Assembly: GCF_900095305.1 (NCBI RefSeq)
Contig: NZ_FMDO01000057.1
Span: forward strand, 18,473-42,472
Reading direction: 5' to 3'
Origin: Proteiniborus sp. DW1
GTDB taxonomy: Bacteria; Bacillota; Clostridia; Tissierellales; Proteiniboraceae
Length of the DNA stretch: 24,000 nucleotides
In this document: piece after piece, positions 3,276 through 15,732 of the stretch
Numbering within the stretch: the stretch's first letter is position 1
How the letters are laid out: each line of letters starts with the position of its first letter
Position numbers and translations under genes: made by a program
The notes under the pieces: generated by a model
Seen by the model: only the letters and a program-made list of their open reading frames with translations
What the model was told of the DNA's origin: nothing
Database searches by the model: none

Positions 3276-3364
3276 TCTAAATATATTTTTTTATAGCCAA
3301 TAGAAAAGCTCTGCTTTCTATCTTTTTCATTTTAGAAGTTTGCGTCAATGAATCCACTCCCTTT

Positions 3365-3419
3365 AAAGGCTTCCATTAGAAGCTTTTTTTAACAAAAAAA
3401 GCTTCTAATGGAAGCCTTT
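3365..3419. terminator. 26-bp perfect hairpin, bidirectional terminator between the GNAT operon and the sigma operon
   Basis: AAAGGCTTCCATTAGAAGCTTTTTTT-AAC-AAAAAAAGCTTCTAATGGAAGCCTTT. It lies 14 nt downstream of the stop at 3433. The U-tract is better in plus sense (TTTTTCTTGTTT) than in minus sense (TTTAAAG). Confidence 0.7.
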
Positions 3420-3432
3420 TTCTTGTTTACAT

Positions 3433-3966
3433 CTACACTTTATTTTTTTCAAAGTTTTCGTACTCCTCTTTTGTAATCTTAAAATATTTGCAGTCTAGAT
3501 TAAATATTTCTATATCTTTAATATACTTCAATCCTATTTTCTCTAAAACATTCATAGAAGCAGTATTTGTTTGCTTTGTAAGACCTATAATATTGTCCAA
3601 ATCTATTTGCTTAAATGCATATTCAAGAGATGCCCTTGCTGCCTCTGTAGCATATCCTTTTCCTCTAGCATGCTTGCCAAATGCATATAAGACTTCTACT
3701 TCTGAAAGATCCTTAATATAGTTTAGACCACAATGCCCTAATAGACAATCGCTTTCTTTGTCTACAACAGCCCATATTCCATAGTTATATTTCTCCCAAT
3801 GCTTTATCATATAATTCATAAATTTCTCAGTTTCTTCTAAGGTATGTCCTTCTCCCTTTGGAAGCCATTTGCCAACCTCATATTCTCCCATAATATCAGC
3901 ATAATCCTTTAAATCCTTTTCAACATCAAAATGCCTTAAATATAATCTTTCAGTTTCTACTCTCAT
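3433..3966 (-). CDS. GNAT acetyltransferase, RimJ/RimL-like
   Basis: 177 aa. It begins with the ERLYLRHF-type N-terminus typical of the RimJ/RimL subgroup and has the core ARGKGYATEAARASLEYAF. SD AGGGGG lies upstream. Confidence 0.85.
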   Translation of the reverse strand: MRVETERLYLRHFDVEKDLKDYADIMGEYEVGKWLPKGEGHTLEETEKFMNYMIKHWEKYNYGIWAVVDKESDCLLGHCGLNYIKDLSEVEVLYAFGKHARGKGYATEAARASLEYAFKQIDLDNIIGLTKQTNTASMNVLEKIGLKYIKDIEIFNLDCKYFKITKEEYENFEKNKV

Positions 3967-3992: not shown

Positions 3993-4847
3993 TTATAGTA
4001 GTGTATAATACATCTCATACTGTGAAATTGAGTCTTTAGTAAAGCCTAAGTGCTTCATAAAGCCTAAAAGACTTGCATTGTTAGGAAAGTTAATTATTAA
4101 TTTTTCTATACCAAGGTCATTCACAGCATAGGTGATAAGGCCTTTAGCTATATTCTGATGACGAAGCTCAGGACTAATCCATATGAAGCTAATCTTTCCT
4201 TTAGGATGGATACTCAATCCTCCTATTATTTTAATATCTTTAAATAACCCGTAATGTATTTGTCCGTCAATTTGACTAACATAATCAAAATCGTTTTGCC
4301 AATTTATATGTATATCTGAGATTTTATTTTTTAAAGCCCTTAAAATTTCTATACCTACTTTTTCTACTCTTAAATCACTAGGTAATATTCCTTTAATCTC
4401 TGATGGATTGTTATGTGAGTAATATACTATATCATACACCTTTTCATAGCCTTTTTTCTTGTAAAAATTAATAGCTCTATCATTGCCTACTATAACCTCT
4501 AAAAACATCTGCTTGCAACTATTCTCTAAAGCTATTTCCTTGTGGAGTTCAAAAAGTTTTTTTCCAACTTCGGTACCTCTATATTCAGGATGAATACATA
4601 ATGCTCCACATCTAAGTGTTTTTATTCCTTCATATACTTTAATGCCAGCTAGATTAAGCCCTACTGGCTTATCACCATCAAGGGCAATGACAGAATACTC
4701 TAGGCTATTTCCCTCTGGTCCAAAAAATCGCTTAAAAAAGAACTCCTTTGACATCTCAATCTTTATGATATAATCTGAAAAGCCAATTTGAAAAGCTTGA
4801 AATATGGTATCTTCGTTCACATCTGTGCATCTTTTATAATTTATCAT
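3993..4847 (-). CDS. two-domain (tandem) GNAT acetyltransferase
   Basis: 284 aa with two GNAT-like halves: LCIHPEYRGTEVGKKLF...FYKKKGYEKV and IWISPELRHQNIAKGLI...FMKHLGFTK. Its ATG overlaps the upstream stop (ATGA at 4844-4847). Confidence 0.75.
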   Translation of the reverse strand: MINYKRCTDVNEDTIFQAFQIGFSDYIIKIEMSKEFFFKRFFGPEGNSLEYSVIALDGDKPVGLNLAGIKVYEGIKTLRCGALCIHPEYRGTEVGKKLFELHKEIALENSCKQMFLEVIVGNDRAINFYKKKGYEKVYDIVYYSHNNPSEIKGILPSDLRVEKVGIEILRALKNKISDIHINWQNDFDYVSQIDGQIHYGLFKDIKIIGGLSIHPKGKISFIWISPELRHQNIAKGLITYAVNDLGIEKLIINFPNNASLLGFMKHLGFTKDSISQYEMYYTLL

Positions 4848-12544: not shown

Positions 12545-12742
12545 CAGGCTTCTCGAAATTCAAAATACAAATTTGCTTATTTCCTTCAGGGGTACAGTCT
12601 TGGTTCTCTCCAGTTAAATCATTTCAATAGTTACTAAAAGTTTTCTTTTCTATCTGAGGTTAGTACTTAAATCTTTATTTTGTGTTCATACCTATATATT
12701 AACATCAAGGCTCAATAATCAGAATATAAAAACCACTTCAAG

Positions 12743-12946
12743 TTAAAGCAGTTCACCGTTTTCATTATAGAATGAATCGCAGAATCTCATGACACCACAA
12801 ACCTTACCTACATTATTTTTGTTTAAGAAAAGAATCTTTAGGTATTCATTTTCAGGATTATTTTCTGATAAAATAATATTATATTGTAATGCAGGCTCAA
12901 ATCCAAACTGCAAATAGTAATATCCCCCTGTTAATGCAATGTGGAA
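12743..12946 (-). pseudogene. 3' fragment of a YhbS-type GNAT acetyltransferase gene
   Basis: An open frame of 67 codons reads FHIALTGGYYYLQFGFEPALQYNIILSENNPENEYLKILFLNKNNVGKVCGVMRFCDSFYNENGELL*. This resembles only the C-terminal third of YhbS-like GNATs (YY..FGF.PA ... G.V.....F). There is no start codon and no N-terminal domain. Confidence 0.5.
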
Positions 12947-13299
12947 CTAGGCTTTTCAGAATGTATTCCATCTTCAGATATACATATTTTTCTGTTCCCA
13001 AACATATCTCCTTTACTTCCTTCCTTAAGGAGCCACTTAATCCTTAATCTAAATAACCAATAAAAAAATGGATTAAAGATTAATACTACGATTATTGCTA
13101 ATATTAAAGAAATAATAAATTCAATAATACTGTATCTATGAAATACAATTTTTGATGAAATCAATATTAAAAGCCCCAATAATAACCTTGTTATCACCAA
13201 CATTCTAGTTGATGACTTAGATGTGTTGAAAAAATGCAAATTAAAACTAATATAGTCTTGCTCGGTAAGTTCATATTCAAAGTTATACATACTTTCCAC
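12931..13299 (-). CDS. YcxB-like membrane protein, probably 3'-truncated
   Basis: 122 aa. The N-terminal FEYELTEQDYISFNLHFF and two TM helices are typical of YcxB-like proteins. The ORF ends where family members, as I recall them, continue for ~50 more residues. Confidence 0.6.
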   Translation of the reverse strand: MESMYNFEYELTEQDYISFNLHFFNTSKSSTRMLVITRLLLGLLILISSKIVFHRYSIIEFIISLILAIIVVLIFNPFFYWLFRLRIKWLLKEGSKGDMFGNRKICISEDGIHSEKPSSTLH

Positions 13300-13331
13300 C
13301 TCTATAAATAATAATAAAATTTCTCTAAGCT

Positions 13332-13730
13332 TTACTTTTTCTTAAATGCTTCACTTTTAAAAAAATCCTTTAAAAATGATGTCCCTACAAATAATAGAAC
13401 AAATAATATGGAAAATTCATTTCTTTTTAATACAGCCTCGATATTTCCCTTATCATACCTTTTAAAACTGAGATAACCTAAAACTGCAAAAGCAACTACT
13501 TGTATAATATCTATTAATGCTAAATATATATTTGTAGTAAATTGCTTTCTCTTTATATCAACATGGGTTTCATATATCATAAGGATAAGTACTAGTGCTC
13601 CAACTATAATAGCAATTAAATCTCTTATCTCATTTGAAAAAGCTAAGCTAATAAACCTTGGTAAAGATAATAATATTATAAATAAAATAGTAAAGAGAAT
13701 TTTAATAATATTTTTATTGGTGTAACTCAT
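13332..13730 (-). CDS. hypothetical 4-TM membrane protein
   Basis: 132-aa ORF with four hydrophobic segments. SD AAAGGAAG lies upstream of the ATG. I recognise no family. Confidence 0.6.
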   Translation of the reverse strand: MSYTNKNIIKILFTILFIILLSLPRFISLAFSNEIRDLIAIIVGALVLILMIYETHVDIKRKQFTTNIYLALIDIIQVVAFAVLGYLSFKRYDKGNIEAVLKRNEFSILFVLLFVGTSFLKDFFKSEAFKKK

Positions 13731-13756
13731 ATTTCTCTTCCTTTCAATAAAAGATG

Positions 13757-13914
13757 TCAGCTAATAATTTTTCTCCTTATATCGTATTGAATTTCATTAT
13801 CCTTTATAGCTTTCTTTAAAGACAATACTTCTTCATTTTTTGCTAAGAGCAATAATAGAATTACGGTACTATAAATTACAAATAATAATAATAATAAAAT
13901 ACGTTTTTTCCCAT
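13757..13914 (-). CDS. small single-pass membrane protein ORF requiring a -1 shift (or 1-nt indel) in an A6 tract at codons 3-4
   Basis: SD AAGGGAG (13921-13927) is followed 6 nt later by ATG 13914. The zero frame gives MGKNVFYYYYYL* (stop 13876-13878). The -1 frame from CGT 13903 is open to TGA 13757 and reads RILLLLLFVIYSTVILLLLLAKNEEVLSLKKAIKDNEIQYDIRRKIIS. Confidence 0.3.
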
Positions 13915-13953
13915 ACCCATCTCCCTTATTACTTCTTAAAACTCTGCAACAAT

Positions 13954-13976
13954 GTTATGCAACGGTGCTAACTCAT
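13954..13976. repeat. left arm of 23-bp inverted repeat (GTTATGCAACGGTGCTAACTCAT)
   Basis: It is the reverse complement of 14732-14754 at 21 of 23 positions, read directly from the sequence. Confidence 0.85.
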
Positions 13977-14040
13977 CTCCAATAGTTTAATCTAATAAGA
14001 TCAATTTTTACTTGTACATATAATGTCAACTAATATAATT

Positions 14041-14355
14041 TTAGCAGTTCATTAGTTTTATTATTTCTTCTATACTATCTGCCTGAGAATCATATTCTGC
14101 TATTATATTAACTTTTCGTGAACCACATTTTACACATTGATGTACTATCTGAATCCCTTTTTTGGATGAATTCTTAATGCCTATTGGCTTCATTAAAGCC
14201 ATACACATGCTTTGTCTATCTCCAGGCTTATTATCTACATGTTTAGAATATAAACAAAATGGACAATGATTTCTGTAACTACCGTTTTTTAATGGCAAGA
14301 CAACTTGTCCGCAATTTTCACAAATAAACCCTTTGTTTTCTTGTTCTCTACTCAA
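14041..14355 (-). CDS. RNHCP-domain zinc-ribbon protein
   Basis: 104 aa. Contains CENCG...YRNHCPFC...HQCVKCG, i.e. the literal RNHCP motif plus CxxC pairs. TTG start with SD GAGGGG 8 nt upstream. Confidence 0.85.
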   Translation of the reverse strand: MSREQENKGFICENCGQVVLPLKNGSYRNHCPFCLYSKHVDNKPGDRQSMCMALMKPIGIKNSSKKGIQIVHQCVKCGSRKVNIIAEYDSQADSIEEIIKLMNC

Positions 14356-14731
14356 AATAGCTTCCCCTCTCTTGATTTATTTGCTAAATCAAGAAATGGG
14401 TTCCGTTTTATTCTTTAATTTAGGCTTGAATGAACAAGTGACAAATTCACCGCCATTCCTTTAGGGTTAGCGATTACTTCCAGTTCCAGCTTCATTAAGG
14501 CATTTTTCATCCTTAAATCCGAACCATGATTAACTTTGTCTTACTTTGTATTAATCACTGTAAGGCGGGTGGGGCCCACCTTCCACTGGTATGTGTAGTT
14601 TCATTCTCACTAACATTGGCGTTCGTCCCCAATTAGCTTTGAGTAAAGAATAATACTTTGTTGCTCAAGTTTTCACTTCCTTCTTTCTGTCACAAGATAT
14701 CAAAAAATTGACCCCATAAACACTCTTAGAA
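14356..14731 (-). ncRNA. long structured 5' leader / candidate cis-regulatory RNA of unknown class
   Basis: This is a visibly GC-enriched island in AT-rich DNA. Hairpins (plus coordinates) lie at 14610-14636, 14562-14582 (AAGGUGGG-CCCCA-CCCGCCUU), 14526-14558, 14495-14516, 14428-14458 and 14364-14400. Several contain G.U pairs that exist only in minus sense. No long ORF is present. Confidence 0.45.
14364..14400 (-). promoter_or_regulatory. SD-sequestering hairpin immediately upstream of the RNHCP start
   Basis: In minus sense: CCCAUU-UCUUGAUUUA-GCAA-UAAAUCAAGA-GAGGGG. A 10-bp perfect stem is extended by CCC:GGG plus U.G and U-A pairs, so the GAGGGG SD is base-paired. No U-tract follows, so this is not a terminator. 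Confidence 0.55.
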
Positions 14732-14754
14732 ATGAGTTAGTACTGTTGCATAAC
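14732..14754. repeat. right arm of 23-bp inverted repeat (ATGAGTTAGTACTGTTGCATAAC)
   Basis: Partner of 13954-13976. It ends 9 nt from the stop of the TIM-barrel gene fragment. Confidence 0.85.
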
Positions 14755-14763
14755 GCTCCGTAT

Positions 14764-15010
14764 TTACACAGGCTCTGTACTATTATCTTTTCGTATTTCA
14801 TTCATACTTTCGTAAGGAGCATGTATATTTTCTATTTCTACCCCAGATTTTCTAGCTAGGCCAGGTAATAATTCTTTTTCTCCATTTATATCTCTTAAAC
14901 TCATCTCCCCACCAAAGCATGACACAATCAAATCCAGCTTCTCTTATTAAGCTAAATCTCTTTTTGCTTTCTATTGCATATCCAAACCTATAATCTAGCC
15001 CCGTTTTCAT
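14764..15010 (-). pseudogene. 5' fragment (frameshifted, truncated) of a xylose-isomerase-like TIM-barrel sugar phosphate isomerase/epimerase gene
   Basis: SD GAGGGAG plus ATG 15010 opens MKTGLDYRFGYAIESKKRFSLIREAGFDCVMLWWGDEFKR. A +1 shift near 14895 is needed to continue DINGEKELLPGLARKSGVEIENIHAPYESMNEIRKDNSTEPV*. Only ~85 of the expected ~270 residues are present. The family call is from memory. Confidence 0.5.
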
Positions 15011-15155
15011 AGTCTCCCTCTATTTTTTCTTTTTTCATTCCGCCATAGGATGCGGTGGTCAATTTTTATGGGATTTTATATAACATCATTCTTTGTGATT
15101 TTGAGATTTTTTTACTTTTCTGGGTTGCAACTTCTTTTAAAATTTACCATCTTTA

Positions 15156-15164
15156 TGGTATAAT
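15156..15164 (+). promoter_or_regulatory. extended -10 promoter element TGGTATAAT
   Basis: A perfect TGnTATAAT lies ~45 nt upstream of the ATG at 15210. The -35 is weak (TTTAAA at 17-nt spacing). Confidence 0.5.
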
Positions 15165-15209
15165 GTCAAGTATATGATATTATATATAAATATGGAAAGA
15201 TGGTGAAAA

Positions 15210-15449
15210 ATGTCTAAAAAAATTATATTTTCATTAGTCATTATTGTAGTGAATATATCAGTGCTTTACATTTCAAAAAACATTAACGCTTTTTCTATAT
15301 CTGCAGCATTAACGTCAATTATTACAGCTATAATAATTGCTCGTTTTCCTAAACTAATTGATTATAATAAAAAAAATAATCATTTTATTACTTTTATAAG
15401 TCTCATTATTATCAGCTGTTTGTTGTTAATGAGCACGTTCTTATTTTAA
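15210..15449 (+). CDS. hypothetical small membrane protein (about 3 TM), the only plus-strand gene
   Basis: 79-aa ORF with hydrophobic segments, an SD-like GATGGTGA 5 nt upstream, and its own promoter element. Confidence 0.5.
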   Translation: MSKKIIFSLVIIVVNISVLYISKNINAFSISAALTSIITAIIIARFPKLIDYNKKNNHFITFISLIIISCLLLMSTFLF

Positions 15450-15732
15450 GCATCTATTCATTTAATTGAATACTTTAAGATAAGTATAGGAGAGAGCATA
15501 GACTAAAAAATTCATTCTAAAGAAAGTATTAAGTTTGTCATTAATTAGCAGATAATAATTCACCATATTTGAAAGTAGTTAGTAATATTGTTTATTGAAG
15601 TGTTGAGTAAAGGGTATAAATTAGGACTATTGTACCAAATTTATATAAGACTTTTACTAACTCTACATAAAATAACTTTTCCCTTCCATATTTTTGTTTT
15701 TCATATAAAACATAGAAGTGATTAATATATGT

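Follow-up and report, generated by a model that had tools for sequence, protein, structure and literature searches.

The question raised by this locus is why a single small gene stands between the two arms of a long and almost perfect inverted repeat. The locus lies in a stretch of 24,000 nt of Proteiniborus sp. DW1 (contig NZ_FMDO01000057.1, positions 18,473 to 42,472), hereafter the window, and the gene encodes a protein with an RNHCP domain. A repeat of this kind may work as DNA, as the ends of a mobile cassette, as the borders of a segment that is flipped or as a pair of protein-binding sites, and these were the three readings of a preliminary description made from the letters of the sequence. 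It may also work as RNA, if both arms are on one transcript. We consider the RNA role rather probable on the basis of folds and comparisons, and precisely that the arms make up the outermost 33 bp of a predicted helix of about 49 pairs, which would join the 5′ leader of one messenger RNA (mRNA) to the 3′ untranslated region (UTR) of the same molecule.

The repeat itself was as previously described: GTTATGCAACGGTGCTAACTCAT occupies 13954-13976, and 14732-14754 is its reverse complement except at two of the 23 positions. In a repeat search the pair of arms grew to 33 nt (13954-13986 and 14722-14754), with a complementarity of 85% and 735 nt in between. A degenerate form of the 23-mer matched the 24-kb window twice, in both cases at the arms, and gave no match in 100 shuffles. 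The arms do bracket one unit on the minus strand, made of a leader and of the RNHCP coding sequence (CDS), and to this unit a short upstream open reading frame (uORF), which had been missed, has to be added. The short distances reported from the right arm to the stop of a TIM-barrel gene fragment and from the left arm to the Shine-Dalgarno (SD) sequence of the next small ORF were also correct (Table 1).

When an 809-nt transcript was folded, the minimum free energy (MFE) and the centroid structures both closed with an arm helix of 49 pairs, with a z-score of -5.35 and with pair probabilities of 0.8-1.0 for all but three of the 33 arm positions. The preliminary description had argued against pairing within the mRNA from the two A.C mismatches that the core has in the mRNA sense. 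The two mismatches are real, but the argument built on them is overturned, since the complementarity continues to 14703 and 14009 and includes seven G.U pairs that exist in the mRNA sense only (A.C on the other strand), against two positions that go the other way. Five complete units were folded in both senses: the sense folds had 43-56 closing pairs with 3-7 G.U each, the antisense folds 25-42 pairs with 0-2 G.U, which gives 24 G.U in sense versus 2 in antisense over the five units, and the sense helix was the longer one in five cases out of five. In the window the duplex energy did not differ between the strands, and in the other five arm pairs it favoured the sense strand.

The search for flanking repeats covered 80 genomes and further contigs. 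The long repeat was found in only four lineages, all belonging to one Clostridia clade, that is, the species of the window, L015 with the L094 group, L064/L119, and L134 together with L171 and L151; the same clade also holds lineages without the arms. All eight arms start with GTTATG and have TCAT at positions 20-23, and the positions in between vary among the lineages and match within the pair of each lineage. For six arm pairs of the four lineages, considered over a helix of 27 pairs, 94% of the cells were paired and nine pairs had changed on both sides, with a covariation score of 0.326 for the arms versus 0.170 in shuffles (none of 500 shuffles reached 0.326). The spacers just inside the arms could not be aligned between lineages, whereas the arms were kept with changes on both sides, which argues that the arms are under selection in their own right.

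A compensatory change cannot separate a role of the arms as DNA from a role as RNA, because transposon ends and recombination sites also co-vary. In fact, tips that are kept (GTTATG and TCAT in the eight arms) with a co-varying middle are the usual two-part layout of terminal inverted repeats (TIRs), so that the arms could be the ends of a non-autonomous cassette with one passenger gene, of the type of miniature inverted-repeat transposable elements (MITEs) or mobile insertion cassettes (MICs), moved in trans, with the RNA pairing as a by-product. The presence of inverted repeats of such length and complementarity at both ends, with tips kept in four lineages, is in line with this explanation, as is the patchy occurrence of the long repeat within a single clade. 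On the whole we regard it as unlikely, given that strand-biased G.U pairing is not expected of DNA sites and in view of what follows.

Between L015 and L094 the identity is 90.9% along a stretch of exactly 803 nt that spans the two arms, the match ends within 1-3 nt of both tips, and their flanks consist of unrelated genes, with a similarity no greater than that of shuffles. Such a match between unrelated genes is what TIRs would produce, and so are the truncated and frameshifted gene that stops beside the window arm and the non-syntenic positions of the leader-bearing RNHCP units, one of them on a chlamydial plasmid. The RNHCP segment appears, from these comparisons, to be a discrete module, and this part of the TIR reading of the preliminary description stands. 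The other part does not, as neither a second copy, nor a transposase, nor an arm-like sequence outside RNHCP cassettes was found in the contigs and collections searched. There is no target-site duplication in the window, where its absence had already been reported, nor in L015, L094, L064/L119 or L134/L171, hence in none of the four lineages; no transposase or recombinase is present in the 24 kb, again as reported; and each contig, like the window, has one copy only. The L094 species also has, at 3338-3395, a 9-bp hairpin (CTTGTCGAT...ATCGACAAG) around the 3′ arm, with one half inside the shared cassette and the other one outside, which L015 lacks.

Copy number and empty sites, proposed earlier as signs of mobility, gave no support to it: no contig contained a second copy of the arms or of the cassette, no empty site was found in about 20 site-spanning contigs of two species, and exact-protein look-ups of two neighbouring genes returned neither an empty site nor a rearranged version. 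What resembled an arm in the viral, metagenome and plasmid collections was either an RNHCP cassette or a chance match in a gene. Precisely, the degenerate arm pattern was found in viral contigs in three copies of one phage gene, as expected by chance; in metagenome contigs, 66 of 80 loci among the matches listed were one chance match in a gut species; a match in L143 was due to chance inside a high-GC gene; and the two 45-nt arms gave, by BLAST against plasmids, only chance matches inside genes (E >= 0.2). The arm of the window appears to have an 11-mer in common with the end of IS26, in the opposite orientation and in none of the other lineages, and we treated it as a coincidence. Sites of the Xer/dif type were rejected on inspection for lack of an 11-6-11 dyad. 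The attC site of an integron cassette is a single imperfect palindrome of 55-140 bp, RYYYAAC...GTTRRRY, at the 3′ end of the cassette; here the arms are 735 nt apart and follow the order GTTATGC...GCATAAC, so that both order and spacing are wrong, and no integrase is present in the window.

The same contigs bear on the possibility that a recombinase encoded elsewhere flips the 800 bp, switching RNHCP off and uncoupling the small ORFs downstream. The repeat has a suitable length and spacing for an inverton, recombination would homogenise the arms and so explain why they are nearly identical within lineages and divergent between them, and the unit of the window may depend on an outside promoter. 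However, the species of the window was found in contigs of about 12 metagenomes (99.7-99.9% identical) with the same arrangement and the same orientation, and a single orientation was seen in all the assembled contigs that join an arm to its flank, about 20 from many samples, which included at least 8 of the window species and 10 of the L094 species, as well as those of L064/L119. The arms also lack, on inspection, the internal dyad typical of recombinase core sites, the 24 kb contain no recombinase and the strand-biased G.U pairs would be left unexplained. The inversion proposed in the preliminary description is consequently regarded as very improbable.

The comparison was also extended to 37 further leader-carrying lineages (Bacillales, other Clostridia and WOR-3), for which the 5′ end of the conserved leader served as the anchor. 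Ungapped helices were scored against controls from the same locus, in place of RNAduplex on 190-nt windows, which was uninformative as it chains many helices. The stretch just 5′ of the uORF SD was complementary to the positions from -4 to +20 after the RNHCP stop with a score >=9 in 14 of the 37 lineages versus 9.8% of the controls (p 5e-6), and a score >=11 for end complementarity was reached in six lineages versus 1.7% of the same-locus controls (p 3e-5). The complementary sequences are specific to each lineage and unrelated to GTTATG; two WOR-3 genomes have a homologous end helix in common, with two compensatory changes and one U.G. Where the helices of relatives are short, their 5′ strand reaches the ribosome-binding site of the uORF and their 3′ strand is found 0-20 nt beyond the RNHCP stop.

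The position of the strands with respect to transcription signals was informative as well. In 6 of 15 lineages a good -10 box precedes the start of the 5′ strand by 4-8 nt, versus a background of 8% (p 7e-4), the boxes being TATAAT, TGgTATAAT, TGcTAAAAT and others, and in L077 (Paucisalibacillus globulus DSM 18846, a cultured carrier of a short-helix unit), L088, L083 and L023 the 3′ strand is found between the stop codon and an intrinsic terminator. A promoter outside the repeat, with both strands inside the predicted transcript, is what one expects if the repeat acts as an RNA helix, but not if it marks the ends of a transposon: were the module a TIR cassette, its 5′ end would not be expected just past -10 boxes that lie outside the element. 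Moreover, Streptomyces units change context without any such repeat, being placed in unrelated contexts with a homology confined from about the transcription start to the terminator. Four results, namely the extended helix, the strand bias, the recurrence in distant lineages and the geometry of -10 boxes and terminators, point to RNA rather than to a DNA element.

Some observations weigh against this reading. Brassicibacter, the closest relative of the window (core 87-89% identical), has no closing helix, and its homology to the window ends inside the arms; since this relative does without it, the helix appears to be dispensable. In three lineages arm position 8 is a mismatch. Immediately before the 5′ arm of the window only weak -10 candidates are present, and a conserved TGGTATTTAT-like -10 box is found just inside the arm in L015, L094 and L134; if this promoter is used, the 5′ arm would not be transcribed from the promoter of the unit itself. 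The limits of the L015/L094 homology, together with the truncated pseudogene 9 nt from the window arm, point to DNA breakpoints that coincide with the repeat. The thresholds for the short helices were picked after viewing the data and an earlier test on a wider window was only marginal, and because of this we consider the excess in the 37 lineages as good, not conclusive, evidence. Finally, 13 of the 23 core positions, tips included, are invariant in all eight arms, more than pairing alone would require.

This last point would suit the third of the earlier readings, in which the arms are paired sites for a DNA-binding protein, that is, operators that loop the DNA or insulate the unit. We consider it the least probable explanation of all: neither arm has a dyad, no further site of this kind was found in the window or in the collections, one strand is favoured in the pairing and the distant lineages keep the complementarity without keeping the sequence. 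An RNA helix that closes the two ends of the mRNA is, in our opinion, the reading that agrees best with the data, and the other features of the locus (Table 1) were considered together with it.

Table 1. Window coordinates of the repeat arms, of the predicted closing helix and of the features around them
Feature	Position	Strand	Remarks
3′ arm (left arm of the preliminary description)	13954..13986	-	23-nt core at 13954-13976
5′ arm (right arm of the preliminary description)	14722..14754	-	23-nt core at 14732-14754; kept with compensatory changes in L015, L094, L064/L119 and L134
5′ strand of the predicted closing helix	14754-14703	-	In the 5′ leader, upstream of the uORF SD; MFE and centroid folds
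3′ strand of the predicted closing helix	14009-13954	-	In the RNHCP 3′ UTR; begins 32 nt past the stop codon
uORF, TTG start, MSNKVLFFTQS-stop	14668..14633	-	SD GGAAGTGA at 14680-14673; stop 2 nt before the first pair of P1
Structured leader, miniature of the 16S 3′ major domain (E. coli 1171-1386; h41 truncated, h42, h43)	14631..14398	-	
Predicted hairpin sequestering the RNHCP SD	14400..14361	-	MFE folds and leader alignment
RNHCP-domain protein, 104 aa	14355..14041	-	Pfam PF12647, E 1e-30
Frameshifted, 3′-truncated xylose-isomerase-like TIM-barrel fragment	15010..14764	-	Stops 9 nt from the 5′ arm
Best promoter-like site upstream of the unit	15169..15141	-	TTGACA-17-TAAATT with TG; 415 nt upstream
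Mini-ORF MGKNVFYYYYYL-stop	13914..13876	-	SD at 13927-13921; directly downstream of the 3′ arm, 26 nt from arm to SD

Inside the arms, the RNHCP CDS is preceded by a leader region of about 370 nt. With nhmmer, 49 of 77 non-redundant lineages were found to have the leader immediately before RNHCP; these belong to Bacillota, Chloroflexota, WOR-3, Actinomycetota, Alphaproteobacteria and others, and RNAalifold on 43 aligned leaders gave 47 consensus pairs, 36 of them with compensatory changes. The leader profile matched positions 1171-1386 of the E. coli 16S ribosomal RNA (rRNA) with 52.3 bits (E 4e-15), the maximum of 2500 shuffles being 6.8 bits, and the covarying hairpins coincide with the positions of h41 (truncated), h42 and h43. 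The leader is, judging from these matches, a miniature of about 235 nt of the head region of 16S rRNA, copying about 215 nt of it. The window has no Rfam 15 match that reaches the gathering score, a scan of 13700-15250 at E<=10 gave nothing of relevance, and the plasmid copy described below had no match either; in the searchable papers we found nothing on RNHCP or PF12647 and no description of a 16S-like leader of this kind. The leader thus appears to be an undescribed and widespread mimic of rRNA.

An SD sequence and a uORF of 7-13 codons, which ends 1-6 nt before an invariant GGGGACGA, are present in most of the aligned lineages, and the peptide is not conserved. Helix P1 of the leader consists, in the window, of U14631-A14397 and of G14630-28 with C14398-14400. 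The CCC at 14400-14398, which forms the 3′ strand of P1, can alternatively lengthen the hairpin over the RNHCP SD. Since the same CCC would serve both, P1 and the sequestration of the RNHCP SD look mutually exclusive in the folds.

The RNHCP family has 1270 homologues in the protein collection and was present in at least 551 of the about 185,000 species-representative genomes scanned. The AlphaFold2 (AF2) model of the protein, with a mean confidence (pLDDT) of 84, has two predicted zinc ribbons and a small beta-barrel. We found no match in the PDB by sequence (best E 0.25, zinc ribbons of the Q antiterminator) or by fold (best E 0.03, TM 0.28, subunit A12.2 of Pol I), so that RNHCP has no homologue of known function by either route. 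The RNHCP genes without a leader, in gut Alphaproteobacteria and in some Clostridia, are chromosomal and syntenic over kilobases; the leader-bearing units are in non-syntenic contexts.

A BLAST search with the 831-bp cassette gave no match in phages and, in plasmids, one copy without arms, on pPNK of Protochlamydia, in which the leader is better conserved than the CDS (a distant BLAST match). This unit (L011, 6001-6561; Ca. Protochlamydia naegleriophila plasmid pPNK, NZ_LN879503.1, 96582-97142), made of leader and RNHCP, is 69% identical to that of the window and is placed between a fragment of an IS5-like transposase and DHFR/MarR genes; it has no flanking arms and is unannotated in the PLSDB gene table, which is incomplete. 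The leader-bearing RNHCP units sit among GNAT acetyltransferases, which in the window are at 408-860, 3433-3966 and 3993-4847 and which are also found in the flanks of L012, L015, L092, L094 and L119, and we consider these acetyltransferase-rich neighbourhoods as variable. The Brassicibacter unit adjoins an ORF that resembles, by eye only, a class D beta-lactamase.

How the module came to have such sharp ends may be accounted for in different ways. The shared DNA may have been trimmed to the functional unit by repeated rearrangement in variable regions or, alternatively, the repeat itself may attract breakpoints. A more daring idea is that the module is a self-contained mobile unit with the shape of a transcript, which imitates a small rRNA operon and in which the ends of the stalk are the ends of the shared DNA; it would carry an accessory protein of the 30S head, gated by the uORF and by the 16S mimic, and would spread without a transposase, via an RNA intermediate or via hairpin-directed recombination at the base of the repeat. 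We regard this as quite improbable. The ends of the arm helix are also the ends of the DNA stretch shared between genomes.

All the genes here are oriented on the minus strand. Between the best promoter-like site and the 5′ arm there is no better one, and a transcript with the 5′ arm on it may start from this site; in 12700-15600 the search for terminator-like sites gave none. With no good promoter closer to the arm and no terminator after the unit, the module of the window is probably embedded in a longer transcript, which would run from the promoter upstream of the pseudogene into the small ORFs downstream. The mini-ORF that follows the 3′ arm is probably co-transcribed with the RNHCP unit, there being no terminator between them. 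It has five Tyr codons in a row, it precedes two small membrane-protein ORFs (13730..13332 and 13299..12931) and it may be a leader peptide.

On the other side, the pair of TIM-barrel ORFs, once manually joined in frame, weakly matched the profile at its first 60 positions; with E 0.004, the match falls short of the Pfam cut-off. The fragment corresponds to the N-terminal part with a frameshift; about 170 codons are missing and the remainder is not found beyond the other side of the cassette. A 14-nt direct repeat, TAnTTGACATTATA on the minus strand, is present at 14019-14032 and 15159-15172 with 13 of 14 positions identical, one copy being in the promoter-like site upstream of the pseudogene and the other one 9 nt past the RNHCP stop.

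From these elements a mechanism can be proposed, all the functional steps of which we infer. The arm helix would form the foot of a stalk, and the uORF, the 16S-like leader and the RNHCP ORF would lie in the closed loop above it, with the same geometry as in the stalk formed by the flanking sequences around the pre-16S rRNA. A nearly perfect duplex of more than 20 bp would be a substrate of the RNase III type and, since the module is probably read through from outside, the likeliest role of the helix would be to excise the module from the longer RNA, to protect its ends by pairing, or both. In the relatives whose helix is short, it could be disrupted by ribosomes that reach the end of RNHCP, which would make the uORF accessible; ribosomes on the uORF would in turn melt P1, and the CCC, no longer paired, would sequester the RNHCP SD. 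This translational feedback loop, made of the uORF and of the end pairing, is speculative. By analogy with the leaders of ribosomal-protein genes, RNHCP probably binds both the 16S head and its own leader.

Pairing between the far ends of a bacterial mRNA is known from few cases, and here it would recur across phyla in one compact module, which makes it open to comparative and mutational work. The enclosed leader outweighs the repeat in importance, placed as it is between a conserved uORF and the gene of an uncharacterised zinc-ribbon protein. The mimicry predicts that the proteins of the RNHCP family bind the 30S head and control their own synthesis and, if this is true, a domain of unknown function that is present in hundreds of the genomes scanned would gain a concrete role. 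The variable neighbourhoods and the copy on a chlamydial plasmid make the mode of spread of the module interesting too.

As regards known systems, the nearest to the enclosed leader are the autoregulatory leaders of ribosomal-protein operons that mimic rRNA, reviewed by Meyer 2018 (reference 43 of PMC11109978). As in those leaders, the 5′ leader of RNHCP apparently copies both the sequence and the helices of rRNA and sits over the ribosome-binding site downstream. It differs from them in that the mimic is unusually large (about 235 nt, with three 16S helices) and is preceded by a conserved uORF, and in that the gene downstream encodes no known ribosomal protein but an uncharacterised one with zinc ribbons, whose binding is here only predicted.

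With respect to its borders, the module can be compared with two types of DNA element. Mobile insertion cassettes and MITEs, such as MIC231 of Bacillus cereus, have TIRs of the insertion sequence (IS) type around passenger DNA and no transposase. The RNHCP unit resembles them for its inverted repeats of 30-40 bp, the single passenger gene, the lack of an internal transposase, the related copies in unrelated contexts and the homology that ends at the repeats, and differs from them as neither a target-site duplication nor multiple copies nor an IS with these ends that could be its parent were found, and as its pairing is biased to the mRNA strand. The pdif modules of Acinetobacter plasmids are gene modules bounded by inverted XerC/XerD sites. 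They too are discrete modules between inverted sites (about 28 bp in pdif), with no duplication and no transposase; unlike them, the RNHCP arms have no 11-6-11 Xer dyad, and the likeness of TTATGTTA to a XerD arm is seen in one lineage only.

With respect to RNA, the first comparison is with the processing stalks of rRNA operons, in which the flanks of 16S or 23S, although more than 1 kb apart, form a duplex that RNase III cuts. In both cases complementary stretches hundreds of nt apart on one transcript enclose a functional RNA, which here itself mimics part of 16S, and in both the duplex exceeds 20 bp, a size accepted by RNase III. Unlike the rRNA stalks, the predicted RNHCP helix encloses a protein-coding mRNA with a uORF and is missing in some close relatives. 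The second comparison is with icaR of Staphylococcus aureus and hbs of Bacillus subtilis, in which the 5′ and 3′ UTRs pair within the mRNA. As in these, the 5′ leader of RNHCP is predicted to pair with the 3′ UTR of the same mRNA, and the effects proposed are on the initiation of translation, on RNase III cleavage or on the stability of the 5′ end. In icaR the 3′ UTR pairs with the SD itself, whereas the RNHCP helix would lie upstream of the uORF SD and be far longer (49 pairs); and, unlike in both icaR and hbs, the end pairing of RNHCP appears to recur across phyla in one module.

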